Assembly (NCBI GenBank): GCA_031316235.1 | Contig: JALDRA010000001.1 | Coordinates: 900,001-932,000 of the forward strand | DNA from: Candidatus Scalindua sp. | GTDB taxonomy: Bacteria; Planctomycetota; Brocadiia; Brocadiales; Scalinduaceae | DNA: 32,000 nt | Direction: 5' to 3' | Shown: piece by piece, positions 5,981 through 22,967 of the stretch | How positions within the stretch are numbered: the first letter of the stretch is position 1 | How the letters are laid out: every line of letters starts with the position of its first letter | Program-made: the position numbers and the translations under genes | Notes under the pieces: model-generated | What the model was told of the DNA's origin: nothing | Seen by the model: the letters and a program-made list of their open reading frames with translations, nothing else | The model's database searches: none

Positions 5981-6056
5981 CGGGGCGTAGCGCAGCTTGG
6001 CTTAGCGCACTTGAATGGGGTTCAAGAGGCCGCTGGTTCGAATCCAGTCGCCCCGA
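5981..6056 (+). tRNA. tRNA-Pro (anticodon GGG)
   Basis: Hand-folded cloverleaf, 76 nt. 7 bp acceptor stem CGGGGCG/CGCCCCG, D stem GCGC/GCGC, anticodon stem CTTGA/TCAAG with loop ATGGGGT (anticodon GGG at 6017-6019). 5 nt variable loop. T arm GCTGG-TTCGAAT-CCAGT. Discriminator A. No encoded CCA. Confidence 0.9.
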
Positions 6057-6073
6057 TCATTTATACCGATGAC

Positions 6074-6323
6074 TTACGATAAACAGGCTTTGACATTTTT
6101 TTCAAATTGTGCCAATTTTGTGCCATTGGCATTTTCAAAGACCTCTTCTGCTCTGTTTTGCATCAACTGATCAAGCGCATTAACCGCTTTCCTTTTGTGT
6201 CCTGGCGCAAGATGTGCACTCCTCATAGTCATCGCTAGCGATCTGTGCCCAAGTAAGTTCCTTGATACCCGCTAAATCAATTCCAGCCATGACAAGTTGG
6301 CTCGCAAACGTATGCCGCAAGTC
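6074..6323 (-). pseudogene. Tyrosine recombinase/phage-type integrase, C-terminal remnant
   Basis: The minus strand reads DLRHTFASQLVMAGIDLAGIKEL. After a 1-nt frameshift it continues LGHRSLAMTMRSAHLAPGHKRKAVNALDQL...*. Only about the last 80 codons remain. The catalytic-Tyr position (R-Y-x-H) reads Ser. It lies 18 nt from the tRNA-Pro 3' end. Confidence 0.7.
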
Positions 6324-6647
6324 GAGCTGACTAACACTTCTTTACTTTTGAGGTTTTTTTTCATGATTCGTTCTGCAGAGGCGCTCCAGTTAAATGTTTT
6401 TGGGTTTTGGTTACTATTTTCAATTATTCATTAATTGCCTTATGTTAGTGAATGAACGCTTTTATAAGTAAACATATTTATAACTCACTACACTAGATGG
6501 AGATGAGAAAATTCCAGGGGAGCTTTGAAATTTAATATTAAAGGTATAAACCCATCCCCAGATTTAAAGCTTACACCTTCTTTCTGACCTCTGCATCCCT
6601 CACTCCAACTCACAATCTTCCTCAAATCATATTATGGTCAAATGCAT

Positions 6648-6715: not shown

Positions 6716-6934
6716 ATGGAAATCGGAATTTCTGAATTTAAAACAAAGTCACTAAAACTATTAGATGAAATTCACCATTCTGGTAAGTCTATTATAGTCA
6801 CCAAGCGGGGCGTACCAATTGCTAAGGTTATCCCAATTTTCAACCACACAAATGAAATTGATCTTAAAGGCACTATAATCAAACAGGACAAAAACATTTT
6901 CAATACAGGTGAAAAATGGGAATCAAACTCATGA
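6716..6934 (+). CDS. Type II antitoxin, Phd/YefM family
   Basis: 72 aa. MEIGISEFKTKSLKLLDEIHHSGKSIIVTKRGVPIAKVIP is the typical Phd/YefM N-terminal fold signature. Its stop overlaps the toxin start (ATGA at 6931-6934). Confidence 0.8.
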   Translation: MEIGISEFKTKSLKLLDEIHHSGKSIIVTKRGVPIAKVIPIFNHTNEIDLKGTIIKQDKNIFNTGEKWESNS

Positions 6935-7344
6935 TATTACTTGATACACATATATGGATTTGGTACCTTACGAAAGACACTAGGCTTAAAGAACGCACAT
7001 ATAAACTAATTAACCGCTTTAAGCAAATAAATGAAGCCTTTATATCTTCTATTTCCATTTGGGAGGTATGTAAATTAAACGAAAAGGGCAAAATTGTATT
7101 TTCTCTGCCACTGAGAACATGGCTTAATGCAGCATTGACCAAGGGCATTTTAATTCAAGAACTTTCAACTGAAATTTATATAGATTCCTGCTCACTCCCC
7201 GGAATATTCCATGGAGACCCAGCGGACCAAATGATCGTAGCAACAGCACGCACATTAAATTACAAGTTAGTCACCTATGACAATAAAATACTCAATTACA
7301 AACATGTTGAATTGTCCAGTGGTTCTGCCAAAAGCTCTGTTTAA
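6931..7344 (+). CDS. vapC: PIN-domain ribonuclease toxin (VapC-like)
   Basis: MILLDTHIWIWY... (first acidic PIN residue in LLDT), an ISSISIWEV segment, and a C-terminal HGDPADQMIVATA motif typical of PIN toxins. 4-bp ATGA overlap with the antitoxin. Confidence 0.85.
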   Translation: MILLDTHIWIWYLTKDTRLKERTYKLINRFKQINEAFISSISIWEVCKLNEKGKIVFSLPLRTWLNAALTKGILIQELSTEIYIDSCSLPGIFHGDPADQMIVATARTLNYKLVTYDNKILNYKHVELSSGSAKSSV

Positions 7345-7635
7345 CCTCTAGATTCCGCATTGATTAAGGCAGGCTTTTCTAGGCCTACGTACTTTCCGGT
7401 AGGACATGCTTACCATTTTCGATGCCAGAGGAAAGTCGTATAGGGAAAGAGACATTAATCAGAAACATTTGGCACAGCTAAAAGCCTAACTTGAAGCATG
7501 GCGATTAAAAAGAAATAAAAGAGTGAAATGAGTAAGAAAAGCAAAAATCCTTCTATATTTTATCAAATATCCAGATCCCTAAAACAAATTTCACAAGATT
7601 TTCTCTCCTCTATATCATGATAAAGAAAGTAAGAT

Positions 7636-7824
7636 TTATTTCCCATCTTTTTCAAATAACCAGCACATTAAGGTCCATTGAAAGGCAGCAAGCCAGGCAA
7701 TGATCAATGCTGTTAAAAAATAATCCAGCAGCCACCATTGCTCAAAGAGTTTTGGTTGGTAGATTGCTACGAATGCAAATGCTACCCAGTGTCCAAGACA
7801 GTACCCGCAGGCTACTAATTCTCC
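7636..7824 (-). pseudogene. DUF1360-like membrane protein, C-terminal remnant
   Basis: The minus strand reads GELVACGYCLGHWVAFAFVAIYQPKLFEQWWLLDYFLTALIIAWLAAFQWTLMCWLFEKDGK*. An in-frame TAG lies 7 codons upstream and there is no start codon. The family call rests on the recalled GEL..C..C...W motif. Confidence 0.35.
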
Positions 7825-8173
7825 TAAAAATGCATTCTTCCTTTTTGTCTATTCTCGCAGTTGTTTAAAAATCTTTGCTTCTGTTAAAGTAAAAGAGATT
7901 GAAGCTGTAACAAAGGACAGATAGATAACATTTCCCAACATAGCCGCAAAGGTTTTTCTTCCCTACCATAAGCCATATGCCATAAGCCTATCAGCAAACG
8001 CATCCATTCCTGCAGTGAGCCACATGTTGTAACATGTGCTTCTTTCTGAGAATTACCAGTTCCCTGCATTGACGAAGCTCTTTCCCGGGAATATAACTCC
8101 CTTTGAGAAGCCCCATACGTAACAGACTAGCCCGTCCGAACGGATTCATCCGGGCGGATATGTACATCCAAAC

Positions 8174-8285
8174 TATACTCATCTCATAATGGTTTTCGGA
8201 TAAAATCCGAGATAAAATTGAGCGAGTATACCTTCACCAAGATTTGGTTTCCGGTAAAACCGAAAACCAAATCGGTTTTAGTATA
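8174..8285 (-). repeat. Interspersed hairpin-forming repeat family, copy B (inverted orientation)
   Basis: The reverse complement reads TATACTAAAACCGATTTGGTTTTCGGTTTTACCGGAAACCAAATC...TCTCGGATTTTATCCGAAAACCATTATGAGATGAGTATA. This is collinear with copy D. Confidence 0.7.
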
Positions 8286-8597
8286 CAACATACAGGGTTT
8301 ACTATTGATAGTATTTCTCGATCGTTTGACTTTGACATTGCTATCTCCTTTCAGATTAATTCCTTCTTGACTATTACATAGTGTGAGATAGCGATTTTAT
8401 CATAATCTGAACCTAATCGCATGTTTCATGCTTCGTTGTGACTGGTAGGCCATGGGTGTTAGTTAAGTTTTTGGAACTCATAAATTGTTAAGATTTGTAG
8501 TACTTCCTGAAGTTAGTAATCAGTAGAATAACAAAGGTGTTGAGCTGCATCATGTAGTGATGCAGCTCTTATCAAAGTAAAAAAAGGAGGTTCGAAA

Positions 8598-8770
8598 ATG
8601 AGAAGTTGGTTGATGAACTGTATAGAAAGATGAGTTATTTACCGAATGTCCTTTTTATGGAAGCCGAAAGATACGGGAGGGATTAAGGCGAGAAGGTTTT
8701 GAAATAGGCAGAGAGAGAGTTCGGGCATACATGCGTCAAATTGGATTACGGGCAATCTATCCCAGGGTAA
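8598..8770 (+). pseudogene. IS3-family transposase remnant (OrfB N-terminal HTH region)
   Basis: Reads KLVDELYRK, then after a frameshift KDELFTECPFYGSRKIREGLRREGFEIGRERVRAYMRQIGLRAIYPR. This is the conserved PFYG.R.I...L...G..V...RV.RLM...GL.A segment of IS3 OrfB. Homology ends after IYPR and the OrfA and DDE regions are absent. Confidence 0.55.
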
Positions 8771-9211
8771 AAATAAGCAAGGAGGAATGGTTTGCGATCC
8801 CACAAAAAGAGGTTAAATCTTATTATACTCGTAAAGTCTTTTAATTATTGATTTTTCTGTTTCCAGATGACATATGCTGCTGGTTTCCATTTTCATTTAT
8901 TTATCATTTGATCAGGAACTCTCCATCTGCTTGGCCGACAATTACCCACGGTTTTTCTCAGTTCATCAGGCTGTTTATCTGCCTTAGCTCTAAATTCAGC
9001 ATATTCTTTCTTATTTGGCGCAATGTCTGCATAGGCGACGCACTCAAGTGCCTTGCGTATTTGCAGGACTCTCCCACGGTTCAACAAAAATGACGAAACC
9101 CGCAAGCGTTTATTTTCCGATTGGGCGAATTGTTATGGGAGCATTCCCGATTTTTTGTAAAATATAATAAAAGATCTTGACTTCCTCGTTGTTTTCAACG
9201 ATAATTCTTCC

Positions 9212-9877
9212 ATGAATTATCCAGGCGGCAAAGGAGGTGTATTCCAAAAGTTAATCAATCTTATGCCACCCCATGATGTCTACATAGAGACTCATTTGGG
9301 TGGTGGCGCTGTTATACGGAACAAACGACCTGCCAGGAGTAATTTTGGGATAGAAATTGACTCGGAAGTTGTTGAGATGTGGACAAATATGCATCCAATA
9401 GGTTTTGAACTGGTCCATGATGACGCAATTAATTATCTGAATAATTATCATTTCACAGGAAAAGAACTGGTATATTGTGACCCACCATATCTTCGCGAGA
9501 CAAGGAAAAAGTATGGACGGCTATATAAATATGACTATAGCCGTGCGCAGCACATCGAACTTTTGGAAGTTTTGAAAACTCTTCCCTGCATGGTGATGAT
9601 ATCCGGTTACGAGTCAACCTTATACAAAGAATCATTGCGTAGCTGGCAGACACATTCTTTTCAGGCCGTCTGTCATCATGGCGTAGCAACGGAGTGGTTA
9701 TGGATGAACTATAGTGTTCCGGTAGGACTGCACGACTATCGTTATCTTGGCAATAACTTTCGTGAGCGGGAACGGATAAAGAGGAAGACCAAAAGGTGGA
9801 CAGCGAAACTTAAATCCATGCCTGTATTAGAACGTCAGGCGTTACTATTCGCCATAGATGTATTCAGGGAGCGATAG
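9212..9877 (+). CDS. D12-class (Dam-like) N6-adenine DNA methyltransferase, orphan
   Basis: 221 aa. N-terminal YPGGK, AdoMet motif I ETHLGGGAV, and catalytic motif IV DPPY (VYCDPPYL), in the alpha-group order typical of Dam-family enzymes. No restriction-enzyme partner is adjacent. Confidence 0.85.
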   Translation: MNYPGGKGGVFQKLINLMPPHDVYIETHLGGGAVIRNKRPARSNFGIEIDSEVVEMWTNMHPIGFELVHDDAINYLNNYHFTGKELVYCDPPYLRETRKKYGRLYKYDYSRAQHIELLEVLKTLPCMVMISGYESTLYKESLRSWQTHSFQAVCHHGVATEWLWMNYSVPVGLHDYRYLGNNFRERERIKRKTKRWTAKLKSMPVLERQALLFAIDVFRER

Positions 9878-9900
9878 AAGTCTTTTGAAAGGGGGTATTT

Positions 9901-11319
9901 TTGACTTGTGTGGTGAAAAGAAAGATAGAGTCATCCGATAACTGGAGAGCTTTATTTTATGGTTTTTTAGACACCCGATTGGATAAGATTGAGGAAGAGT
10001 ACTCAATGGAAGATTTAGGAGAAATCTCAAAAGCTGTTTTCGAAGAGAGAGCGGAGATATTAGGACAACTGATTCTTGGGTTCATAGAGAGGAAATTTGG
10101 ACATTTATTGAATCAGCAAAGCTGCGATTGCCCCGAATGCGGCAAGGGTATGCAAAGACAAGGAAAACAATCCAAGACTATCCAAACCCTTGCCGGACAA
10201 TTTGAATTAACCAGGCCTTATTTTTATTGCAGAGCGTGTCGTTTAGGATACTATCCTTTAGACGAAGCCCTTGGATTGTCTGAATCATCGAAGCAATATG
10301 ATGTGCAAGATGTGGAAGCCTGGTTGTCAAGCGAAACGGCCTATGAGACGGCCAGCGAAACCTACGAGAGAATAACCGGAGTAAAGCTGAGTGAACATCA
10401 TATGCATGAGACCACGAATGCCATTGGTCAAGAAGTGGGAATTTTGGATGTCTGCCCGCCCAGGGAAGAGATTGATAAGCAGATAGAAAACCTCTCAGTG
10501 GATAAGTTTCGTCGTCCCATTATGATGCTTGCCCTGGATGGAGCCCACGGGCCGATGCGTCCCGAGCCAAGTCCTCACCCCCGTAAAGGGAAAAGAGGCA
10601 AGGGAGAATACAAAGAGATTAAAGGTTTTAGACTGTATCTCATCGATGGTCAAACTATTATTCATTTAATTAGCTGGCACCAGGTTTGTGCAGATCACGA
10701 ATTAGCAGAATACTTGGTTAAGATCAAAGAAGCCGGGCTTATTCCCCACGAGAAGATACGCCTGGGAATTATAGGAGACGGTGCTCCCTGGATCTGGAAC
10801 CGATGTAAAGAAATATTTCCCTCGGCAAAAGAGATTCTCGACTATTACCATTGCTCGGAGTATGTCCATGGTGTAGCCAATGCCCATTACGGAAAAGAGA
10901 CAAGAGAGTCTCTACAGTGGTGTGAGGCGACTCTGACAAGAATATATTATGGTTACCATGAAGAGGTGCTTGGCGGTCTTGGAAAGATGAAAGCCCGAAC
11001 TCAAGATATTCAAGATAAAATTGACAAGTTTTATACCTATCTCACAAATCATTGTGAAAAGATGGATTACAGTTCCGCCAAGCGTGGAGGATATCACATT
11101 GGCAGCGGTGCTATTGAAAGCGCCAATAAATTCATTAGCCATACAAGGCTTAAACGATCAGGAGCTTGGTGGTATATCCAAAACGCTAATAACATACTCA
11201 AGATCAGATGCGCGAAATATAACGGTACTTACGATAAAGTTATCGAAAAATACAAAAGGGACGACCAGGAAAGAATTAAAAATAAAAAATTTAAGAGAAG
11301 TCTTCGAATTGTTAAATAA
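9901..11319 (+). CDS. ISKra4-family DDE transposase
   Basis: 472 aa. Zinc-ribbon-like CDCPECGKGMQRQGKQSKTIQTLAGQFELTRPYFYCRACRLGYYPLDEALGL followed by LALDGAH...IGDGAPWIW...ILDYYHCSEY, as recalled for ISKra4-family transposases. The start codon is uncertain (TTG 9901 or ATG 10006). Confidence 0.75.
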   Translation: MTCVVKRKIESSDNWRALFYGFLDTRLDKIEEEYSMEDLGEISKAVFEERAEILGQLILGFIERKFGHLLNQQSCDCPECGKGMQRQGKQSKTIQTLAGQFELTRPYFYCRACRLGYYPLDEALGLSESSKQYDVQDVEAWLSSETAYETASETYERITGVKLSEHHMHETTNAIGQEVGILDVCPPREEIDKQIENLSVDKFRRPIMMLALDGAHGPMRPEPSPHPRKGKRGKGEYKEIKGFRLYLIDGQTIIHLISWHQVCADHELAEYLVKIKEAGLIPHEKIRLGIIGDGAPWIWNRCKEIFPSAKEILDYYHCSEYVHGVANAHYGKETRESLQWCEATLTRIYYGYHEEVLGGLGKMKARTQDIQDKIDKFYTYLTNHCEKMDYSSAKRGGYHIGSGAIESANKFISHTRLKRSGAWWYIQNANNILKIRCAKYNGTYDKVIEKYKRDDQERIKNKKFKRSLRIVK

Positions 11320-11384
11320 ATTTTACAATAAATTGGGAATGCACCCATTGTTATGTGCTACTTGATCCAAAATTCCTCGAAACG

Positions 11385-11906
11385 TCAGTCTCTCCCCATA
11401 TTAATGGGGGCGTGGGGATATAACGCTTCACGATTCTGAAACGATATAATATCTGGTTTTTGAATAACGCCGGCATCAATGTTTATAGCCTGTCGAATAG
11501 TCTCATTTTGTTGCCAGCTCTTATCGCCCGCTATCACTGTCGGCAAGTGGACAATCAGAGCAGCAGAGATAGACCGCGAGGCACTTTCCCATAGATAGCT
11601 TGGTGTATGATCCACAGCGTAGTAATCTACCTGTCCAATTTTAAACATAGGGTTTTTAAATGTAGTTGGTTTGGCAAGGATGACATTCCCAATATTGGCC
11701 AGTAGTTTGTGGCGTGTGGCAACGCCACCTGACTGATCCGACATTTCTGAATCGGTAATATCAAAAGGTGTTCCATAACCTTCCTCAAATATCAGCTGAC
11801 GACGAATTTGTTCGGGAATGCGTATTAGATGCTCCGGATGGATTGGAATACGTCGCTCATCCTCTTTTCTTGAAGTACCAAAGACTCCAAATTATAATTT
11901 ATTCAT
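11385..11906 (-). pseudogene. Alanine/saccharopine dehydrogenase-like oxidoreductase, decayed
   Basis: ATG at 11906-11904 is followed by TAA at codon 5 (MNKL*). It then reads in frame FGVFGTSRKEDERRIPIHPEHLIRIPEQIRRQLIFEEGYGTPFDITDSEMSDQSGGVATRHKLL. An N-terminal-type segment joins directly to a C-terminal-type segment (YAVDHTPSYLWESASRSIS...SFQNREALYPH), which implies an internal deletion. Confidence 0.4.
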
Positions 11907-12040
11907 ATTGTTTCCTTCTTTTTACGAATGCTGTTCTGAGAACCTGTTTATGGTTGTTTGTTTCTGTGTTTGATTCACAGCCCCCCTCACGGTAATTCAC
12001 ACTTCCAAAAGCACATAGTAATTGAAGAAATAGGGACAGC

Positions 12041-12166
12041 ATATAACGCCTGAGCTAAGCTAACCCGTGTGACGGAGAAAACTATGAATAAAAACAAAAT
12101 TAACAAAGAATCTTAAATTTTAAACCCGCACATGACAAAGGGGTTAGCTTGTGCGATTTGTTATAC
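12041..12166 (-). repeat. attC-like 126-bp imperfect inverted repeat, copy 1
   Basis: Minus strand: TATAAC-AAATCGCAC-AAGCTAACCCC...(AT-rich, about 70 nt)...GGGTTAGCTT-AGCTCAGGC-GTTATAT. The outer boxes pair (TATAAC/GTTATA) and the inner boxes pair over 10 bp. The 9-nt spacers between them do not pair. The DUF2442 stop codon is the TAA inside AAGCTAACC. Confidence 0.6.
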
Positions 12167-12410
12167 GTTGGGTTTCTACTTTTGCGTTTTTTTCATACAA
12201 TATTTCTGGATCAATATCCAAATGATTTGCCCATTCTATAGAATCAAACTTAACCGTTACCGTGTTAAACAGGGAAATATCTTTTAATTCTGTAAATTTA
12301 CCTATATCAAAATATGGTGATACATCAAAAATTCTTTCTTCATTATTTTCAAATTTAATCAAAAGTTTATATCCATCTAACGGCGTTACGTTTAATACCG
12401 ATAAATACAT
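12144..12410 (-). CDS. DUF2442 domain protein (partner of DUF4160)
   Basis: Starts MYLSVLNVTPLDGYKLLIKFENNEERIFDVSPYF at ATG 12410, preceded by GGAGGA 7 nt upstream. The DUF2442 assignment comes from the recalled V.P.....L...F.dG....D motif. The 22-codon extension in the ORF track is not supported. Confidence 0.75.
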   Translation of the reverse strand: MYLSVLNVTPLDGYKLLIKFENNEERIFDVSPYFDIGKFTELKDISLFNTVTVKFDSIEWANHLDIDPEILYEKNAKVETQRITNRTS

Positions 12411-12421
12411 TGATTTCCTCC

Positions 12422-12688
12422 TTATTTTAAAGGTTCTATTGAAAATGGAAGTTCGCCTTTTGACGCTAATTCCCAATCAGCTATGAGTTCTTCCTGATGG
12501 ATTTCGGCCTATGCCAAAACAAGTTTTGTTTGTTTTGGAGGCAACTTGCCTTCTGATATCTCACATGAACGAATATCGATTATAGCCTTATGATTCTGAT
12601 AATATGCGTGGAAGTGAGGAGGGTTATGTTCTCTGGGGGAACAATATATCCTGATAATAATTCCGTAAAACATCGAGATAGTTGGCAT
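12422..12688 (-). pseudogene. DUF4160 domain protein interrupted by an in-frame TAG
   Basis: MPTISMFYGIIIRIYCSPREHNPPHFHAYYQNHKAIIDIRSCEISEGKLPPKQTKLVLA-TAG-AEIHQEELIADWELASKGELPFSIEPLK*. The amber codon at 12509-12511 sits where family members have Trp (LV.eWA..H). Confidence 0.7.
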
Positions 12689-12808
12689 ATATGACTCAAT
12701 TGATTTAGTTGTGCTTACACGTCTATTATTGTGAGTATCGATTTGCATGCTAAAACAATATACGTATGTATTCAAGACAAAAATGATCAAATTTGGTCCA
12801 ACAAGAGG

Positions 12809-12904
12809 TTCTTTCAGAAATCGTAATAAGAATTCTCTCTTATGACATCTGTGTGTAATATGCCAAACATACTCTTGTATGTAATGCCTATTTGCACGCG
12901 CCAA
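12809..12904 (-). pseudogene. IS200/RAYT-like (Y1) transposase, N-terminal fragment
   Basis: ARANRHYIQEYVWHITHRCHKREFLLRF matches the recalled N-terminus of Y1 transposase-like proteins (RANR.Y.PGYVWHITHRCH.KEFLLKF). Homology is lost after about 32 codons. The ORF-track ORF 12509-12904 is a chimera of this fragment and DUF4160. Confidence 0.5.
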
Positions 12905-13070
12905 AATGCAAATTCCTTAAAACCATCTTTTTTACACCAAAAAGTAGTATTTAAGACAAAAAACATCCTTATTCTTGAAGCATAATCATTCTATACCAAG
13001 AACTTACCATGGTCAGACCCTATGCTCTCTTGAATACGGTGCTAACGAAACATGTTCAGTCCAGATCCAA

Positions 13071-14375
13071 TTATGAAGATGGCCCAGTACCCGGTGAAGC
13101 ATTTGTCACCGCGTAGCTTGCGGCATCTCGGACGACCGCCAGGTCTTCATCCAAATCAAGCGCTTTGCATGCGCGTTTCAGTGCCAGCTGCCCATGATAG
13201 ATAGCAGCATCCCTCATTTCAGAATGTCCAATCGATGTCAGAGTGCCCAGCGCCTTCTGTAGCCGCACTGCGACTTCGACCGTCCCCGCACCGTCACGGG
13301 AAATCGCTGTGAACGCGTCATCGAACATATCGCGGATCGAAATCTGAGGCACTTCTACGAGATTATACTTGCACGTTTTCGTGTCGTCTCCTTTCGACGG
13401 GTCATTCCACAGAGCAAAGAGTCGAAGCAGTACGCCGATAATATTGATCGCCGTACCGGGGTCATTTACAGCCGGTGACAGAGCACGACCGGCTATTTCC
13501 GATAGAACGACCAGACCAAAACGTGGGTCATCATCGAAAAGACGTTCGTTTCCAATCTGAAACGACTCGACAGCGCACGTGTAGTCAATTTCAGACCGGT
13601 TGCCTGATGAGCTGCTCACATACGCCAGTACCCGATCAGGTGCAGCAAACGTACCAGGCAATGCCGCTACCACCACCCGTGCGCTGGCTTCCTCGGCCCA
13701 CACTTGAATTGCGGCCATGTCGATATGCTGCACGTATCCAATATTCTTTGCAAATACTGGTTGCCCCCGTACCCGAGATTTATCCTCCGGCATACCATAT
13801 AGGCTTGGCGCAGCACGTCGTCGTTTCAGGGCTTCAACCGTTGCCTTTTCAACCTTGTCAATCGTCGATCCAAGGCGCCCAAGGCGGGCGATGCTGTCAA
13901 CCCAGCGCACAAACGTAAAGATTACCATCCCGAATACTATCGTCGTCAGGATAAAGAGGATGAACAGACCTGCCTTTTCAAAGTAGGCGTTTTTAACCGC
14001 CGTTAGAGCCACGATGCTGAAAATGAAAGCGCCAACGAAAGTCGAAAGCGCGTTCTGGGATACGTCGTCGGCAACGACCAAACCAAATGAACGCGGAGTA
14101 GCGGTGCTACTAGCTGAAGCATATGCCGACACCATCGACGCCACCGAAAAGGTGGCGATTACCAACATACTGGCCGCCATGACGGACAGCAACGTCTCGA
14201 TAGAGTCAAGTGCGATCACGGGCACGAACTGTGCTAGCGCGGTGTCATCAGCAAGTTTCGCCACGAAGGCCGCACCGACCGACAACAAGCAAACCGCCAA
14301 TGGTTTCACCCAAAGGCGCTTACGCAAACGATTGATGAGAAACCTGAGACGGTCTGCTGAAATGGTAGATTCCAT
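13071..14375 (-). CDS. DUF2254-like integral membrane protein (GC-rich, foreign composition)
   Basis: 434 aa. N-terminal RLRKRLWVKPLAVCLLSVGAAFVA followed by about 4 TM segments and a soluble C-terminal half. RBS AAGGGAGAA lies upstream of the ATG. Hand count is 39/60 G+C at 13081-13140, against 16/60 at 12901-12960. Confidence 0.7.
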   Translation of the reverse strand: MESTISADRLRFLINRLRKRLWVKPLAVCLLSVGAAFVAKLADDTALAQFVPVIALDSIETLLSVMAASMLVIATFSVASMVSAYASASSTATPRSFGLVVADDVSQNALSTFVGAFIFSIVALTAVKNAYFEKAGLFILFILTTIVFGMVIFTFVRWVDSIARLGRLGSTIDKVEKATVEALKRRRAAPSLYGMPEDKSRVRGQPVFAKNIGYVQHIDMAAIQVWAEEASARVVVAALPGTFAAPDRVLAYVSSSSGNRSEIDYTCAVESFQIGNERLFDDDPRFGLVVLSEIAGRALSPAVNDPGTAINIIGVLLRLFALWNDPSKGDDTKTCKYNLVEVPQISIRDMFDDAFTAISRDGAGTVEVAVRLQKALGTLTSIGHSEMRDAAIYHGQLALKRACKALDLDEDLAVVRDAASYAVTNASPGTGPSS

Positions 14376-14393
14376 AATGTTCTCCCTTGCACA

Positions 14394-14465
14394 GTCTAAC
14401 GGATTGCATCACCTGCCGGAATGAAGCGAAGCGGAATTCCGGTCAGTGTGCATGCTTTTGTTATT
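14394..14465 (-). other. 72-bp attC-like recombination-site candidate
   Basis: Minus strand: AATAAC-AAAA-GCATgCACaCTGaCCGGAAT-(13 nt loop)-ATTCCGGCAGGTGATGC-AATCC-GTTAGAC. The stems pair perfectly except for three single-base bulges (lower case). The 3' box GTTAGAC fits GTTRRRY. The site ends 18 nt before the DUF2254 ATG. Confidence 0.55.
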
Positions 14466-14593
14466 CGCCGTTCACACAAACGTTAATATTCGGCTTAGAC
14501 GTTGTAAGAACTTTCAGAATGAGTTTGATTGAGCTTTCTACTTGGCCTTGATAAACCAATGATTCCAGAACAGGCAGAAGTGATGGTCATCAG

Positions 14594-15214
14594 CTACGCT
14601 ACGCCAGATATCTGAATGAAATCGCTCTTAAGGTTGTAAAGTTTCTGCAATGTCCCGGACATTCCAAGCCTGAGAAGCTGCAACTCCTTGCGAAAGGCCA
14701 GGACTCTACTTTTCGCTTCATGGACCTTACCAGTACTGACCATGTCGAGTACCTGTGTAGCCTCTGTCTGTAGCTGCTCGGCGACATTTTCCATATACAT
14801 GAACATGTCAACATCGGCTTCGCTTAGCATATTGAATACCCAGCGTATCGAGTCGAGTTCTTCGCCCTTCAGGACTGCTGCAAACCACCGGTCGAGATAT
14901 TTATAGAAGATGTTCCCGATAATGTGGCAGTGCCCTCGTCCATCTTTGACTTCGTTGAGCAACCCTCCACCCTCAATCCTCAACAAGACCTCTGAACCCT
15001 TTTCCATCGCATCGCTGTCGATGCCAAGTTTCAGGAATTGAGTTATTGCTGTGTCCATAACCTGCCAGGTTTTACCGATCTCATCGAGGGCCTCCGCAAG
15101 TTTTAAAGCGGCCAAGTCCGGCTGCATCTTTAACTTTGCCACAAGTTTTCCGATGATACCTAATGCCTCATCAGCTTTTTTGATCGATTCAAGTGCTGCT
15201 GCTATTTCTAACAT
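14594..15214 (-). CDS. Hypothetical protein, predicted mostly alpha-helical, no recognised domain
   Basis: 206 aa ORF with an ATG start preceded by GGAGGT 8 nt upstream. Composition is intermediate between host and GC-rich neighbour. It is followed by the 72-bp attC-like site. Confidence 0.6.
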   Translation of the reverse strand: MLEIAAALESIKKADEALGIIGKLVAKLKMQPDLAALKLAEALDEIGKTWQVMDTAITQFLKLGIDSDAMEKGSEVLLRIEGGGLLNEVKDGRGHCHIIGNIFYKYLDRWFAAVLKGEELDSIRWVFNMLSEADVDMFMYMENVAEQLQTEATQVLDMVSTGKVHEAKSRVLAFRKELQLLRLGMSGTLQKLYNLKSDFIQISGVA

Positions 15215-15303
15215 TTTTTACCTCCAATTGAGTTAAACTGTGTTCATTTACCTTGAACCAATGCTGCAAGCTATTGGATCCGAAGTTTCGGGCGTAATAC
15301 TAA

Positions 15304-17371
15304 CCTGGATTTTCACGTAATTAATTAAACTAAGAAAGCAGAGCGAAATTCTATCTCAATGTCATTATAACAGGTAAATTTTTTAGCCAAGGCAATCTGA
15401 AAGGCATATTAATTAATCCAGACTGAAGTAAAATTGGATTATTGGCTCTTTTATTAAGTCTCACTTCTAAATTATTTTTCCCAATAACAATTTTAGCAGG
15501 TGTATCAATAAATTTTCTAAAAATTACATCCGGGTTACTTTGTTCATAACCTTTGAGTTTTTGGGCTAGTATATGATAAATGGCTTGAGCAACAAGGGTA
15601 AGCAGGACATCAAAGTCAATTCGAATAGCAACGGATGAAGACAAAGAGCCGTTATGAAAAAAACCTACACCTGTTGAGATTGAATTTTCTATAAGCATCC
15701 TCAGGGCATATCGTGAAATAAGGTCGGAACAGGAAACCTTCTTATCGTTTGTGATCAGGATTGTGGGAAGGTCATGCCCCAAATCTTTAATAAACATCTG
15801 TCTGATTTTTCCAGTATAACTACCAAGGGTGATTTCTTGATCAATCACTTTTGGAGTTCTGAATTTTCTCGCTACATTGCGAAGCTCTATTTTACGCCAA
15901 GCGGATAAAGAGGTATTAGCAACTTCCTGGAGGACTTTCGGTGTTCGTCGCCTCAGGGTAATAAATGTAATTCCCATCTGGTTGAGTTTTGAAAGGTTCT
16001 CATAGGTTGTCAGCTTTGAGTCAAATACCAGATGTGGAGGATTCTGACCGGTTTGTTTCTTCCAGAAGTCAATAAACCTCAAAATTTCATTCGCTTCTTC
16101 TCCTTTCCGCAGGGCGGAGTTGCTATAGCAGAAGATTTTTGATTTTGCATCCTGAGCAAAGAACACAAGTATTGCCTTTTGCCGTCGGCTCCTCATGGAA
16201 ACATAGTGTTTCTCTACAACATCATCTTCTCCGAAATATGGAAGTGATTGAAAATCAAGATTAATGGAATCTCCATCTAGGATGTTATTTCCCCTGAGTT
16301 TCTTGAGCCATAAATGCATAAACTTTAAATTATCGGCATGAGTAATTCTCTCGGAATATTCACAAATATAGGCAGTTTTTGGCAGGACGTTAAGCCCTAC
16401 ACCCAATGCAGCCCCTTCATCAAAAGCCAAATCCATAATATGGGTCTTGCGCTCTTTGGCAATGAGCTTTAATAACAAAGAGGAGAGAAATGCATTTTCA
16501 GCAGGAATCATTTTTGACCCATACCAGTCCATATTCTTAATAATCTTATGAACGTCCATTTCTGCCAATATTTTAAGTAGCAAAAATACACCCCCTATAC
16601 GCGTTTCTATAACTCGGGGTGTCAGAGCAAGTTGTCTTATATCTGCATATGCTGCCTGTTCCGGCCTTGGTCGAGTAAGCATTTCCTCTTCCCTTCTTCT
16701 TGGGAGCCTGGAAAAACCCTCCTCTTTCAAGATGCTCCAAATAGATACACCACTGAGTTGAATTCCTTCTTCTTTTAAGGTGATCTGGATGTCCTTTACG
16801 GAATAATTTTTTTTTCGAAGGTCAATAACACGATTTCTTGAGTGATCTTTCTTGGGGCCAAATTTAGGTCCTGGTTTAGTTTGGACAAAAAACTTTCTAT
16901 CAGGATCATTTCTGAATTTATGACACAGAACGTGTAAGGCCCCTGGTGAATAACCAAAACGCTTGGAAATAGTTACAACAGGGAGGTTTTGAACAAAATA
17001 TGCTCTTAGAGCTTCGTACTGTCGTTGTTTTGGAAGCTGTGGCTCTAAAAAGAATCTCGACTCGTCACTTAGGCAATTACTTAACTTATCTTGTAATTGT
17101 GTCTTGCTTGTTTTTGTTACCATGTTGATAGAATAGCTAAATATATAGTATTTTTAAGGTAAAGTATGAATCAGCTACAATTCTACCACCATTCTACTAA
17201 CTACACAACAACTATTTACTTTAACTATTTAGATAAGTAAGAAAGGTTGTAAGCTTGGTAGCAACAAAGACAGTCCTCAAGTAAAACAAAGGTTTTGAAC
17301 AATTTTAGATAGCTCAAATTCGAAAAATATGGTTAAATCCTTAGGTGAATTAGCTTACGTGGAAATCCAGG
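15304..17371 (-). mobile_element. Insertion sequence (2068 bp) with a single 590-aa transposase; family not assigned
   Basis: Terminal inverted repeats CCTGGATTTTCACGTAA (15304-15320) and TTACGTGGAAATCCAGG (17355-17371) match at 16/17, and weaker similarity extends to about 32 bp. It is flanked by the direct repeat CTAA (15300-15303 and 17372-17375). Confidence 0.75.
15351..17123 (-). CDS. Transposase with N-terminal HTH domains (DDE-type presumed)
   Basis: 590 aa filling the IS. The N-terminal region (QRQYEALRAYFVQNLPVVTISKRFGYSPGALHVLCHKF, then VIDLRKKNYSVKDIQITLKEEGIQLSGVSIWSILKEEGF) looks like tandem HTH DNA-binding modules. Confidence 0.75.
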   Translation of the reverse strand: MVTKTSKTQLQDKLSNCLSDESRFFLEPQLPKQRQYEALRAYFVQNLPVVTISKRFGYSPGALHVLCHKFRNDPDRKFFVQTKPGPKFGPKKDHSRNRVIDLRKKNYSVKDIQITLKEEGIQLSGVSIWSILKEEGFSRLPRRREEEMLTRPRPEQAAYADIRQLALTPRVIETRIGGVFLLLKILAEMDVHKIIKNMDWYGSKMIPAENAFLSSLLLKLIAKERKTHIMDLAFDEGAALGVGLNVLPKTAYICEYSERITHADNLKFMHLWLKKLRGNNILDGDSINLDFQSLPYFGEDDVVEKHYVSMRSRRQKAILVFFAQDAKSKIFCYSNSALRKGEEANEILRFIDFWKKQTGQNPPHLVFDSKLTTYENLSKLNQMGITFITLRRRTPKVLQEVANTSLSAWRKIELRNVARKFRTPKVIDQEITLGSYTGKIRQMFIKDLGHDLPTILITNDKKVSCSDLISRYALRMLIENSISTGVGFFHNGSLSSSVAIRIDFDVLLTLVAQAIYHILAQKLKGYEQSNPDVIFRKFIDTPAKIVIGKNNLEVRLNKRANNPILLQSGLINMPFRLPWLKNLPVIMTLR

Positions 17372-17410
17372 CTAATGATGTCTTCAACGATATGCACACA
17401 CAACTCACCG

Positions 17411-17534
17411 CATAACGGCGAGCTAAGCTAACCCGTTTAGCGAAAAAAATTTGTAAATACGAATAAAATTAACAAAGAGTTAAAAATTTGCAAACCGCAC
17501 GTAATAGAGGGGTTAGCTTCAGCGCCTCGTTTGG
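17411..17534 (-). repeat. attC-like 124-bp imperfect inverted repeat, copy 2
   Basis: Minus strand: CCAAAC-GAGGCGCTG-AAGCTAACCCC...GGGTTAGCTT-AGCTCGCC-GTTATG. It is collinear with copy 1 throughout, including the AT-rich centre (TTGTTAATTTT). It overlaps the brnA stop codon. Confidence 0.6.
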
Positions 17535-17767
17535 GGCTTTTCATGTTGTGTTGTGTAAAAATCAAGCAGCTTGCGGATCATCGCTTGATAAGATGTATGA
17601 TGCTTCCTGGCTTCTTTCTTAAAAAAATCAACACTAGACTTACTCAAAGACATGGTGACTTTTACATTTTCTTTCTTAAAGATCAAATCTTTTGGTGGCG
17701 GTAAAAAATCATCAATAACCTTTAATTTGCCAAGAGGCTCATCGGTGTACTTAATTTTGCTTTTCAT
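17519..17767 (-). CDS. brnA: BrnA antitoxin (CopG/RHH-like)
   Basis: MKSKIKYTDEPLGKLKVIDDFLPPPKDLIFKKENVKVTMSLSKSSVDFFKKEARKHHTSYQAMIRKLLD is the typical BrnA pattern. It overlaps the brnT 3' end by 17 nt. Confidence 0.8.
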   Translation of the reverse strand: MKSKIKYTDEPLGKLKVIDDFLPPPKDLIFKKENVKVTMSLSKSSVDFFKKEARKHHTSYQAMIRKLLDFYTTQHEKPQTRR

Positions 17768-18029
17768 ATATATTCTTTCCTTTCCTCCAGTAACCTGCAC
17801 CTATTATTCTAATTACATCCTTTCGATATGTAAATCGAACTGTTAAAATTTCATCTCCAATTTTGCCAAAACAATAATAGCGTTCCTCCCTATGGCTATG
17901 TTTCAGATCTTTTGCAATTACTCTGTACGGATCGATAAAAGCATATTGAGCCCACTCAAATGAGACACCGTGCTTTTCTTTATTTTCTCGGTTTTTATCC
18001 TCATCCCATTCAAATCTTGTCTTTGCCAC
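17751..18029 (-). CDS. brnT: BrnT toxin (DUF497 ribonuclease)
   Basis: 92 aa. FEWDEDKNRENKEKHGVSFEWAQYAFIDPYRV...ERYYCFGKIGDEILTVRFTYRKDVIRIIGAGYWRKG is the DUF497/BrnT signature. Confidence 0.85.
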   Translation of the reverse strand: MAKTRFEWDEDKNRENKEKHGVSFEWAQYAFIDPYRVIAKDLKHSHREERYYCFGKIGDEILTVRFTYRKDVIRIIGAGYWRKGKNIYEKQN

Positions 18030-18101
18030 AAAAAGATTATAACGTTATCAGCACAGAATGCCATATAAAAGTACATATAATTGTATGGCTGTTTGGATTG
18101 A

Positions 18102-18226
18102 CCCTAACGCTATGGCGTGCAACCCCGTGTGGCAAATAAAATAGCAGATAACATAAGACAAGAAAAGAGCCTGGAAATAATTGAATCGCAAATGACGGAG
18201 GGGTTGGCTCCACTGATTTGTTAGAA
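18102..18226 (-). repeat. attC-like 125-bp imperfect inverted repeat, copy 3 (diverged)
   Basis: Minus strand: TCTAAC-AAATCAGTGG-AGCCAACCCC...CACGGGGTTG-CACGCCATAGC-GTTAGGG. It shares TAACAAATC, AACCCC, ACACGGG(G)TT and GCGTTA with copy 1. It lies 20 nt after the RelE-like stop codon. Confidence 0.55.
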
Positions 18227-18245
18227 TTGGCTGCAACATTTTCTG

Positions 18246-18515
18246 TTAATACACTTCATCGTGTGTACCAATATCAATGAGTAATGCTTTATTTTCAGAA
18301 ATGATTTTGAATACAAGACGATATTCATATGTAATACTGAAAGCTCAATATCCTTTGAGCTTACCACTCAAATTATGAGTTTTTAAAGAAGGATGAAATG
18401 GATTTACAGTGAACTGAGTTAATGTTTCTTGAAAATCAGCTATTAAATCAGGATGTTTTTTCTTTTATTTCTTGAGTATCCGTAAAAACGGTTTATCCCA
18501 AATGATTTCAACCAT
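18246..18515 (-). pseudogene. RelE/YafQ-type mRNA interferase toxin with two in-frame stops
   Basis: MVEIIWDKPFLRILKK-TAA-KKKHPDLIADFQETLTQFTVNPFHPSLKTHNLSGKLKGY-TGA-AFSITYEYRLVFKIISENKALLIDIGTHDEVY*. The stops are at 18465-18467 and 18345-18347. The TGA sits where Trp is expected (G.wa.sI). Confidence 0.65.
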
Positions 18516-18516
18516 T

Positions 18517-18723
18517 TTATATATTTTTCATCAAATCACTTACTGTGCCACTGGTAACGTTTCCGGTATTATAGTTATCTTCTGCTTCTTTTGCTCTCTC
18601 GGCAATTTCATTCCTCCTCACCTCATGGATGCGTTTGCTGATTGTTTGTACAATAAAGTCTTGATCATCCAAAGGTAGAGAAGAAACATTTTTGAGAATA
18701 TCATTTATTATTGATTCCTGCAT
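18517..18723 (-). CDS. Putative antitoxin of the RelE-like module
   Basis: 68 aa acidic ORF ending 1 nt before the toxin ATG. LPLDDQDFIVQTISKRIHEVRRNEIAERAKEAEDNY resembles small RelE-partner antitoxins. The assignment rests mainly on position. Confidence 0.5.
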   Translation of the reverse strand: MQESIINDILKNVSSLPLDDQDFIVQTISKRIHEVRRNEIAERAKEAEDNYNTGNVTSGTVSDLMKNI

Positions 18724-18922
18724 AATCTAAAATCCTTTCATTATTGTGTCTCATAGTTACTATACCTCTTTTAAATAATTTTTTAAAAATATTTTCTCTT
18801 AATTATTAATTCTATCGTTTGAGGGCATGTAATCATTATTATTTGTATTAGCTTTATCAATATTTGTCAACAACAAATACTTTAATACAGACGGGTTTTC
18901 CAATACGTTAATCGTTTTCCTT

Positions 18923-18962
18923 CAGTCAAGTAGGGCAGGATTCAGGCTGCCCTACTTGACTG
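18923..18962 (-). terminator. Perfect 16-bp stem hairpin overlapping the antiporter stop codon
   Basis: CAGTCAAGTAGGGCAG (18923-18938), an 8-nt loop, then CTGCCCTACTTGACTG (18947-18962). One arm is the last codons plus the stop of the antiporter gene. No U-tract follows on the transcribed strand, so terminator function is uncertain. Confidence 0.35.
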
Positions 18963-21716: not shown

Positions 21717-21920
21717 ATGTTGGAACATCAAGTAATAATTGAACAGGATGAAAATGGTTATTTTGTTGCCGAAGTGCCCGCCCTTCCAGGTTGTCTTTCC
21801 CAGGGCATAGACCAGGAAGAAGCTCTCGCTAACATCAAGGAATCAATTGAAGGGTGGCTTGAAGTAATGGAATCCAGGCAGCCTTTTGATTATACAAAAT
21901 CTGATGAAGTTGCCCTATAA
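21717..21920 (+). CDS. hicB: HicB-family antitoxin
   Basis: MLEHQVIIEQDENGYFVAEVPALPGCLSQGIDQEEALANIKESIEGWLE is the classic HicB N-terminal domain. Its TAA overlaps the hicA ATG by 1 nt (TAATG). Confidence 0.8.
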   Translation: MLEHQVIIEQDENGYFVAEVPALPGCLSQGIDQEEALANIKESIEGWLEVMESRQPFDYTKSDEVAL

Positions 21921-22141
21921 TGGTCAAACATCTAACACTTTGTTCTGGTGCAGAAGCAGTTCGAAAGTTACAAAAACATGGATGGTCTGCCGTTCGACGG
22001 AAAGGTACCTCTGTAATGATGACAAGGCCTGGATATCATTGGACATTATCAATACCTCAACACGCAGAACTTGGTCCGGGCCTCCTTAGAAAACTCATTC
22101 ACCAGGCAGACCTGTCCGTTGAAGAGTTTAATGACTTATGA
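21920..22141 (+). CDS. hicA: HicA-family mRNA interferase toxin
   Basis: 73 aa. SGAEAVRKLQKHGWSAVRRKGTSVMMTRPG...SIPQHAELGPGLLRKLIHQADLSVEEF fits the HicA pattern (l.k.Gw...rq.GSH.....g......vP.H.el..Gtl..Il.qagl..eeF). The expected Ser-His reads Thr-Ser here. Confidence 0.75.
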   Translation: MVKHLTLCSGAEAVRKLQKHGWSAVRRKGTSVMMTRPGYHWTLSIPQHAELGPGLLRKLIHQADLSVEEFNDL

Positions 22142-22243: not shown

Positions 22244-22367
22244 CATTTAATGGTTTTCGGACATAATCCGGAAAAAAGCGGAACGGGTAAAATGCTCGGC
22301 GTTTTTTGTCCGGGAATAACAGCAACCATGATCTGGTTTCCCGTAAAACCAGATCTGTTTCAGTATC
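22244..22367 (-). repeat. Interspersed hairpin-forming repeat family, copy C (inverted orientation)
   Basis: The reverse complement reads GGATACTGAAACAGATCTGGTTTTACGGGAAACCAGATCATGGTTGCTGTTATTCCCGGACAAAAAACGCCGAGCATTTTACCCGTTCCGCTTTTTTCCGGATTATGTCCGAAAACCATTAAA. It is collinear with copy D, including the central CCCGGACAAAAAACGCCGAG block. Confidence 0.75.
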
Positions 22368-22967
22368 CATGACCATCATCAGTGGTTATTGTAGTCGTGA
22401 CCCTCATTTGTGCAGAACGAGTTTTGCGTATCGTATTCCAATTACATTGCTATCTTCTGCATACTGATTTGAGAAAAAACATTGAGGTCCACAATGTTTG
22501 ACACCATGAAATTGTTGGTTTTCAGAAGAGTGTAGGAGCTCTATCTTTCCGTCAATGATTTCTGAAAACGTGTCCGCAATAAAAGACAAACTCAACCATT
22601 TATGGGAGTAATAGTTAGAAGCAAAAAATGTTGTATCAGTAAAACATCTGTTCATTAAAGTAAACATTTCATTCGAAGCCGGAATTCCCGTTTCTCACAA
22701 TACCCGTTTCAAACTTCTGCTCAAGTACCTGAATCACAAGAGTTACAACATTTCTTACCATCTTTTTTAACTCTGGCACGTGAATTGTGTTTTATCCATC
22801 ACAAGAAAGTTGGAGAATGACAAGGCTCTTTCGTGTTTGAGTTTAGGAAACTTTTTAACCTTAAACATATATCAACTTAAATTTACAGGTGTAAAAACTA
22901 AACGGCACGTAAAGAGCCTTGTTACTATTGTCGAAATAAAGCATTTACCTTAATAATAATCCAACCC

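Follow-up and report, generated by a model that had tools for sequence, protein, structure and literature searches.

What is the variable stretch that lies between a tRNA-Pro gene and a kefB-like exchanger gene on the chromosome of Candidatus Scalindua sp., and what put it there? We analysed 32,000 nucleotides around it (assembly GCA_031316235.1, contig JALDRA010000001.1, positions 900,001 to 932,000 of the forward strand), hereafter called the window; coordinates are counted from its first letter. A preliminary description of this DNA had singled out three minus-strand repeats of about 125 bp, each placed behind a small gene module, and had read them as the recombination sites (attC) of an array of integron gene cassettes without an integrase. 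This interpretation is supported, as models of attC sites match two of the three repeats and no integron integrase gene (intI) is present in the window. The segment at about 11.35–18.73 kb is very probably an integron gene cassette cluster that has no integron integrase in cis, that is, a cluster of attC sites lacking integron integrase (CALIN), as defined by Cury et al. (2016, PMC4889954). The variable region between the tRNA-Pro and kefB-like genes is integron-derived. The kind of element is already well known; its host lineage, here an anammox bacterium carrying the array on its chromosome, is little studied.

Repeats with the layout of attC sites

The three repeats (attC copies 1 to 3 in Table 1) lie on the minus strand where they had first been placed, are 124–126 bp long and share 73–76% identity over about 125 nt, far beyond chance. 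The order R''-L''-L'-R' proposed for them stands. The parse of the individual boxes had to be revised, since the spacers given as "8–11 nt" take in three base pairs that belong to the beginning of the L box. In the canonical parse, an R'' box (xxxTAAC) is followed by a 5-nt spacer and by an L box in which 3 bp precede a bulged base and a stem of 10 bp. Past the L box, the same arm has a bulge of about 7 nt before a further short stem, GCGG/CCGC, which leads to an AT-rich, unpaired centre of 55–60 nt; the mirror L' box, a spacer of 5–6 nt and an R' box (GTTAxxx) complete the site. The spacers are AAATC/TCAGGC or similar within the family. Conserved extrahelical bases, proposed at the outset as a feature to look for, are found in part: copies 1 and 2, like every related copy, have the first bulge at its canonical place, 3 bp into the L box (GCT[G/T]AAGC versus GCTTAGC), and the second single-base bulge is replaced by the bulge of about 7 nt. 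Copy 3 is degenerate. Of its L box only CAACCCC/GGGGTTG still pairs, and the pairing beside the spacer is gone.

The one unusual feature of the 125-bp family is its long, unpaired, sequence-conserved AT-rich centre. A promoter in this centre was considered and rejected: sigma-70-like sites are no commoner there than in shuffled sequences, and only copy 1 has one, which is not conserved. A small protein encoded on the bottom strand was likewise rejected, as the mini-ORF (open reading frame) with a Shine-Dalgarno sequence and ATG (MNKNKINKES...) occurs in four of nine family copies and is absent from the other five.

Each repeat had been described as starting at or over the stop codon of its module, and this is borne out. 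The stop codons of the DUF2442 and BrnA genes fall within copies 1 and 2, with an overlap of about 20 nt, and copy 3 begins about 20 nt past the stop of the RelE/YafQ-like frame; the interval of 567–568 bp between copies 3 and 2 does hold brnT-brnA alone. For three of the four window sites, the model hit opens a few nucleotides ahead of R'' and the ORF stop is reached 6–23 nt into it. When the related loci are counted in, wherever the contig permits, a co-oriented ORF stops close to R'' at 11 of 14 sites, in most cases within about 40 nt, and the next co-oriented ORF begins 11–108 nt past the site at most of them. The orientation of the repeat always follows the upstream gene.

The fourth window site, which had been noticed as being of a shorter type, is present between the 206-aa ORF and the DUF2254 gene, and starts 127 nt after the former. 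It has three single-base bulges, all on the 5' arm. All four sites have the ends ...AAC and GTTA..., and the outer purine and pyrimidine positions of the consensus (RYYYAAC/GTTRRRY) match in part. A fifth site had been proposed as a partial one split by an insertion sequence (IS). The split is real, and what survives is a 5' remnant without a recognisable 3' half: when the IS is removed in silico, only the first 15–25 nt align with the family, and none of the models scores the site. No attC was found between the DUF2254 and DUF4160 genes, where there is only a short AAC...CGTTAGC string, and DUF2254 and DUF4160/DUF2442 share one attC.

Outside the array the window carries a VapBC-like pair (antitoxin and PIN domain, 6716–7344, +) and a HicB/HicA pair (21717–22141, +). 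The covariance models gave no convincing attC match in the window after vapBC, near hicBA or at a hairpin by the kefB-like gene; a plus-strand match at 8522–8588 (E 0.6) was rejected as weak and without a GTT R' box. The hairpin (18923–18962) has a perfect 16-bp stem and an 8-nt loop and lies over the stop codon of the kefB-like gene. As an attC it was discarded, for it has no AAC/GTT boxes, and it has no T-run either.

Read in the direction of its genes, the array is a succession of cassette units, each made of a minus-strand gene or gene pair with an attC site directly 3' of it. The putative antitoxin gene and the RelE-like pseudogene come first and are followed by copy 3. brnT-brnA and copy 2 come next, then an IS and the 206-aa ORF with the short site, then DUF2254 and DUF4160/DUF2442 with copy 1, and lastly what is probably a gene fragment, the 119-aa ORF, with the attC remnant that the ISKra4-family IS splits. 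Successive sites are 0.57, 2.9 and 2.2 kb apart. The 279 CALINs described by Cury et al. (2016, PMC4889954) have about five attC sites on average, and half of them are in genomes without the integron integrase, IntI. Like these, the window combines two or more attC sites, separated by 4 kb at most, with the absence of an integron integrase over that distance. Its array is small, with about four sites, and chromosomal; the cassettes are mostly of unknown or toxin-antitoxin function, and IS lie within or beside it. It differs from them in its anammox planctomycete host and in having one degenerate and one truncated site.

If these sites behave as those of established integrons do, the bottom strand of each attC (the plus strand of the window) would fold into a hairpin in which the R box (TAAC/GTTA) and the L box pair, with the unpaired spacer of 5–6 nt between them. 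The bulged bases on the L'' side would mark the recombining strand, and the IntI tyrosine recombinase would cut at the GTT of the R box, after which the cassette would be excised as a circle or inserted at attI or at a secondary site. Three of the sites, namely copies 1 and 2 and the short one, have kept the look of intact and competent attC. Because no intI is nearby, cassette movement would need an IntI supplied from elsewhere in the genome. The plus strand of the window has a negative GC skew, and the bottom strands of the attC sites would therefore lie on the leading-strand template, as those of chromosomal integrons reportedly do according to work by Loot and colleagues in 2017.

Covariance models and base pairing

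The preliminary description had left its interpretation to be judged by an attC covariance model. Three such models were built here as surrogates for the curated model of IntegronFinder, and the outcome on the whole favours it, though not at every site. The first, R1, was made from six 125-bp repeats, namely the three window copies and three from metagenome-assembled genomes (MAGs) of Scalindua, and was searched on six class 1 integron plasmid regions obtained with an IntI1 query (90 kb, both strands, filters off). Its top nine matches are all real attC sites on the cassette strand, with E-values from 1.6e-4 to 0.52 and nothing false among them; they directly follow dfrB1, aadA2, aadA16, lnuF, arr-3 (two copies), dfrA14, aac(6')-IIc and aacA4. 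On the window copies, all of which are in its training set, R1 gives 137 (copy 1), 130 (copy 2) and 115 bits (copy 3).

The second model, R2, was built from these nine plasmid sites and nothing else. On real attC sites held out of it (those of blaOXA-2, ereA2 and dfrA27) it scores 22–38 bits, and on the related Scalindua and metagenome sites 20–50 bits, a similar range. In the window R2 finds copy 1 with significance, at 12036–12170(-) (27.0 bits, E 1e-4), and more weakly copy 2, at 17405–17541(-) (13.6 bits, E 0.3), and the short site, at 14389–14470(-) (11.2 bits, E 1.2). In the R2 alignment the class 1 consensus, UAACAaauCgaUCaAGC ... GCUuAucUCGggCGUUA, stands against TAACAAATCGCACAAGC ... 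GCTTAGCTCAGGCGTTA in copy 1, whose ends are nearly identical to the consensus (TAACAAATCG..CAAGC and GCTTA.CTC.GGCGTTA). The third model, R3, combines 12 plasmid sites with seven Scalindua or metagenome sites from outside the window and contains no window sequence. It ranks copy 1 first in the window (35.7 bits, E 3e-7), followed by copy 2 (21.9 bits, E 1e-3), the short site (15.5 bits, E 0.06) and a fourth match of 11.7 bits. Rfam, which has no attC family, matched only the tRNA in the window.

The likeness to the attC sites of class 1 cassettes (aadA, dfr, arr-3, aacA4) lies in the ends, which are nearly the same (TAACAAATC-G..CAAGC and GCTTA.CTC..GCGTTA). The short window site, together with a site at a related locus (L003, 2014–2080), further shares with them the spacing of the bulges, that is, 3 bp, bulge, 6 bp, bulge. 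The 125-bp family of the window, by contrast, is twice as long as the class 1 sites, has G or T rather than C as the first top-strand bulge, and carries its bulge of about 7 nt where they have a second bulged base.

To assess base pairing, 16 sites from outside the plasmids were aligned to R3. The AAC/GTT pairs show little or no variation, and compensatory changes affecting both sides occur in seven of the nine L-stem pairs. In this alignment 95.7% of cells are paired, versus 78% in shuffles (none of 500 reaches the observed value), and pairing falls to 11–46% when the 3' partner is slid by 1–3 columns; these figures lean towards structure, the alignment having been fitted by R3. Conservation of the R box in sequence and of the L box in predicted structure is the pattern expected of attC sites. 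Copy 3 fails the L-box pairing test.

Points against, and other explanations

Several observations weigh against reading the locus as a CALIN. Copy 3 goes undetected by the models that were not trained on it (R2 and R3), and the scores that the plasmid-only R2 gives to copy 2 and the short site are low. The models are small, their E-values are rough, and R2 and R3 inherit the alignment architecture of R1. The DUF2254 gene lacks an attC of its own. Within the 125-bp family, the canonical second bulged base has given way to a larger bulge on the same side, and the AT-rich centre is conserved in sequence yet barely pairs. Single strands fold only weakly better than shuffled sequence (z -1.3 to -2.2), and that of copy 3 no better; such weak folding energy is atypical of long attC sites such as the Vibrio cholerae repeats (VCRs). 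Finally, no IntI, attI or Pc promoter was identified in the sequences examined.

This last point raises the question of whether the array is what is left of a complete integron. None of the ORFs of the window encodes IntI or a full tyrosine recombinase, and the features of a complete integron, an intI with the IntI-specific insertion and an adjacent attI and Pc, were not found; upstream of the first cassette there is the Na+/H+ exchanger (kefB-like) gene and then housekeeping genes. What the window does hold is a C-terminal remnant of a tyrosine recombinase (Table 1), which adjoins the tRNA-Pro gene (5981–6056, +) and lies 5.7 kb from the nearest intact attC. Were it the rest of the array's own intI, the element would be a degraded complete integron and not a CALIN. 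The remnant is indeed Xer/IntI-like (30.1 bits to the integron integrase family TIGR02249 of NCBIfam, 31% identity to the C-terminus of IntI1) and sits at the edge of the same accessory region, and the vapBC-like genes, the first to its right, read away from it, as cassettes beside an intI would. Its best match, however, is to XerC (44.9 bits), and the database entries closest to it are fragments of generic site-specific integrases, none of them named an integron integrase; similar short fragments are numerous there, in part on contigs that reach megabase length. It stands 5 kb past the downstream end of the minus-strand cassettes and on their strand, not upstream of the first cassette, no attC was found behind vapBC, and a tRNA-adjacent position is typical of genomic-island integrases. 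The remnant cannot be typed, because the IntI-specific insertion lies upstream of the surviving part, and its belonging to the element is uncertain. Its place beside a tRNA gene, downstream of the array and in the same orientation, fits a genomic-island integrase better than the intI of the array. We consider a degraded complete integron very improbable and retain the CALIN reading.

The other explanation would make the 125-bp repeats a lineage-specific intergenic repeat, either like a repetitive extragenic palindrome (REP) or miniature inverted-repeat transposable element (MITE) or acting as a terminator, which looks like attC and is no IntI substrate. An exact pattern of the repeat was found in just three stretches when one genome per species was scanned over 185,579 species, with one match in each and all of them in Scalindua or Scalinduaceae MAGs; a metagenome collection gave three contigs, again with one match each. 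The high copy number and lack of fixed gene polarity of REP or MITE elements are thus not seen, and as far as these scans go the repeat is not a generic element scattered without regard to gene ends, a finding that the preliminary description had named as fatal to its interpretation. Although the centre of 55–60 nt is conserved and unfolded, no integrase is encoded at the repeat-carrying loci whose ORFs were scanned (L002, L003 and L012) and several occurrences are single and in ordinary chromosomal context (L002 and L012), this explanation is barely credible: chance likeness would neither rank nine true attC sites first in 90 kb, as R1 does, nor enable a model trained on true attC sites to find the repeat on its proper strand, as R2 does; the repeat keeps the AAC/GTT core, the spacers of 5–6 nt and the bulged base at the canonical L'' position; it is found in arrays with textbook short attC sites; its copy number is low; and no terminator-like site or T-run signature exceeds chance.

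Cargo, decay and relatives of the array

Table 1. Sites, genes and mobile elements of the array and its left border, in window coordinates.
Feature	Coordinates	Strand	Remarks
Tyrosine recombinase C-terminal remnant	6074..6340	-	~85 aa, frameshifted; LRHTFAS...LLGHRSLAMTMRSAHL, catalytic Tyr replaced by Ser
ISKra4-family IS	9135..11348	+	37-bp inverted repeats; NCBIfam transpos_ISKra4, 241 bits; Pfam UPF0236
Fifth attC, 5' remnant	11349-11362	-	R'' ACATAAC; ACATAAC-AATTC-GCC; continues at 9120-9134 as AATTCGCC
119-aa ORF	11385..11744	-	weak match to AlaDh_PNT_C (alanine dehydrogenase/PNT C-terminal), E 9e-4, below curated cut-off
attC copy 1	12041-12166	-	125-bp family; GTATAAC-AAATC-GC[AC]AAGCTAACCC ... 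GGGTTAGCTTAGC-TCAGGC-GTTATAT
DUF2442 gene	12144..12410	-	Pfam DUF2442, 50.6 bits; 3' end runs into R''-L'' of copy 1
DUF4160 gene	12509..12685	-	Pfam DUF4160, 57.9 bits
DUF2254 membrane protein gene	13071..14375	-	Pfam DUF2254, 299 bits; GC 54%; begins 19 nt past the short attC (its R' box)
Short canonical attC	14394-14466	-	73 bp; GAATAAC-AAAAG-CAT[G]CAC[A]CTG[A]CCGGAAT-loop-ATTCCGGCAGGTGATG-CAATCC-GTTAGAC
206-aa cassette gene	14594..15214	-	no assigned function; GC ~49%
Second IS	15301..17374	-	20-bp inverted repeats; 590-aa transposase; weak IS1380/IS1634 transposase matches
attC copy 2	17411-17534	-	125-bp family; R'' CCAAAC, R' GTTATGC
brnA antitoxin gene	17519..17800	-	Pfam BrnA_antitoxin, E 8e-5; stop codon inside L'' box of copy 2
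brnT toxin gene	17751..18029	-	Pfam BrnT_toxin, 85.8 bits
attC copy 3	18102-18226	-	degenerate member of 125-bp family; R boxes TCTAAC/GTTAGGG intact; 76% identical to copy 1
RelE/YafQ/ParE-like toxin pseudogene	18246..18515	-	two in-frame stop codons
68-aa putative antitoxin gene	18517..18723	-	first gene of first cassette; ORF overlaps start of RelE-like frame

The gene calls of the preliminary description hold for DUF4160/DUF2442, BrnT/BrnA and the RelE-like frame, all of them recognised by Pfam; what had been taken for a RelE-like toxin gene is a pseudogene, and matches the families YafQ_toxin, YoeB_toxin and ParE_toxin once its two in-frame stops are replaced. The 68-aa ORF before it has no Pfam or NCBIfam match, and its position suggests an antitoxin role. 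For the 206-aa protein, too, Pfam and NCBIfam gave no family match. The 206-aa and DUF2254 genes are GC-rich (49–54%) against a background of 35–40%, as is the kefB-like gene outside the array (55%). At 12800–12904 (-), a long ORF that runs into DUF4160 begins with MARANRHYIQEYVWHITHRCHKREFLL, which seems to resemble the N-terminus of an IS200/RAYT-type Y1 transposase; Pfam reported no such match.

Toxin-antitoxin cargo is known to aid the persistence of chromosomal integrons, and that of the present array would probably help it to persist in the same way. The array is decaying, as judged from the two IS insertions, the toxin pseudogene, one degenerate attC and one truncated attC. The ISKra4-family IS, which splits the fifth attC, is flanked by a 4-bp duplication (TGTT); upstream of its transposase gene it carries, as a passenger, a gene for a D12-class adenine methyltransferase (9212–9877, Pfam MethyltransfD12). 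The second IS lies within the leader of the cassette that follows copy 2, 37 bp past the R' box of that copy. The degenerate copy 3 adjoins the toxin pseudogene.

On both sides the array gives way to ordinary chromosome. The left flank holds hisG, a tetratricopeptide repeat (TPR) protein gene, yebC, ftsH and the tRNA-Pro gene, and the right flank the kefB-like exchanger gene, usp, hicBA, thiC, a rluD-like gene and truA. The region between vapBC and the first IS looks like debris: short overlapping ORF fragments at 7620–8182 (-) suggest a decayed gene, and 8731–8844 (+) may hold a fragment of an IS3-like orfB. A second pair of repeats, unrelated to the 125-bp family, lies at 8187–8349 and 22248–22458 (+), with 76% identity over 42 nt and again over 29 nt. 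It includes a small hairpin, TTTTCGGAnAAAATCCG, its left copy immediately precedes the start codon (ATG) of a minus-strand ORF in decay, and Rfam gave no match to it. A Logan contig of 9.8 kb (L008, SRR28338161_1749) encodes an identical KefB and has the same gene order in the right flank, and so is probably from the same strain. It ends about 20 bp before attC copy 3 (near window position 18249), consistent with repeats breaking assemblies. The 125-bp repeat would thereby explain the break in this apparently same-strain short-read assembly.

At related loci the repeat likewise starts at the stop of a co-oriented ORF, which encodes a 187-aa membrane protein, a helix-turn-helix antitoxin or BrnA. 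The BrnA genes carried by the family in the window and at a related locus are only 30% identical, and no fewer than five unrelated gene families have an attC of this one family behind them. Together with the recurrence of the 206-aa cassette gene in a Nitrospirales genome (below), these observations bear indirectly on the cassette-wise variation whose absence the preliminary description had named as a ground for refutation. The attC family also shares arrays with short canonical attC sites, at 2014–2080 (50 bits) and 3963–4049 of L003, 789–863 (41 bits) of L014 and 265–332 of L013.

The family resembles the attC sites of sedentary chromosomal integrons, such as the VCRs of about 125 bp, in being homogeneous in length and sequence (73–85% identity) and genus-wide, and the array resembles theirs in its toxin-antitoxin-rich cargo and in its cassettes, which are read one way. 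Unlike those integrons, it has no intI, attI or Pc, and 4–5 sites in place of tens to hundreds. The centre of its repeats is an unpaired AT-rich stretch and not the imperfect long stem of VCRs. Unlike sedentary arrays, moreover, the related loci L002, L003 and L012 are single sites or mini-arrays, each in a different chromosomal neighbourhood. It is conceivable, if rather unlikely, that Scalindua cassettes are mainly dispersed as single units or mini-arrays beside housekeeping genes, marked by the genus-wide 125-bp attC family, and are not gathered on one platform. Such dispersal would mean that an IntI supplied in trans often inserts cassettes at secondary sites, and the conserved centre might then have a second function, for example in protein binding or in the expression of the next cassette.

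Homologues of the 206-aa cassette gene occur in different neighbourhoods. Its protein is 100% identical to one from a Candidatus Scalindua sp. MAG and 89% identical to one from a Nitrospirales MAG. In the latter (L015, 1037–1741), the gene and its flanks match window positions 14522–15226 (-) with 86.5% nucleotide identity over 705 nt. Beside the Nitrospirales homologue the 3' arm of the short attC persists at 20 of 21 nt, and about 78 nt, the R'' box and the 5' arm included, have been deleted there. The presence of the 206-aa gene together with this remnant of the attC 3' arm is direct evidence of gene and attC having moved as a unit. The roughly 70 nt that follow the stop codon of the gene are conserved in the Nitrospirales locus as well and could thus represent a 3' extension with a function or a small ORF past the gene. 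At another locus (L020), a homologue of 71% identity is followed by an attC of its own, and then by another cassette and attC.

Chromosomal attC families of Planctomycetes have been recognised before, and an attC covariance model specific to Planctomycetes exists (Ghaly et al. 2021, PMC8352920); we found no paper describing integrons in Scalindua. The value of the present locus is mainly one of annotation, as a routine but clean example of a known element, and it leaves the knowledge of how integrons work unchanged. The Scalindua attC family can be used to mine cassettes from metagenomes of marine oxygen-minimum zones and sediments, and the 206-aa cassette, with its counterpart of 86.5% identity in a Nitrospirales genome, shows that anammox bacteria and other marine lineages have a pool of cassettes in common.

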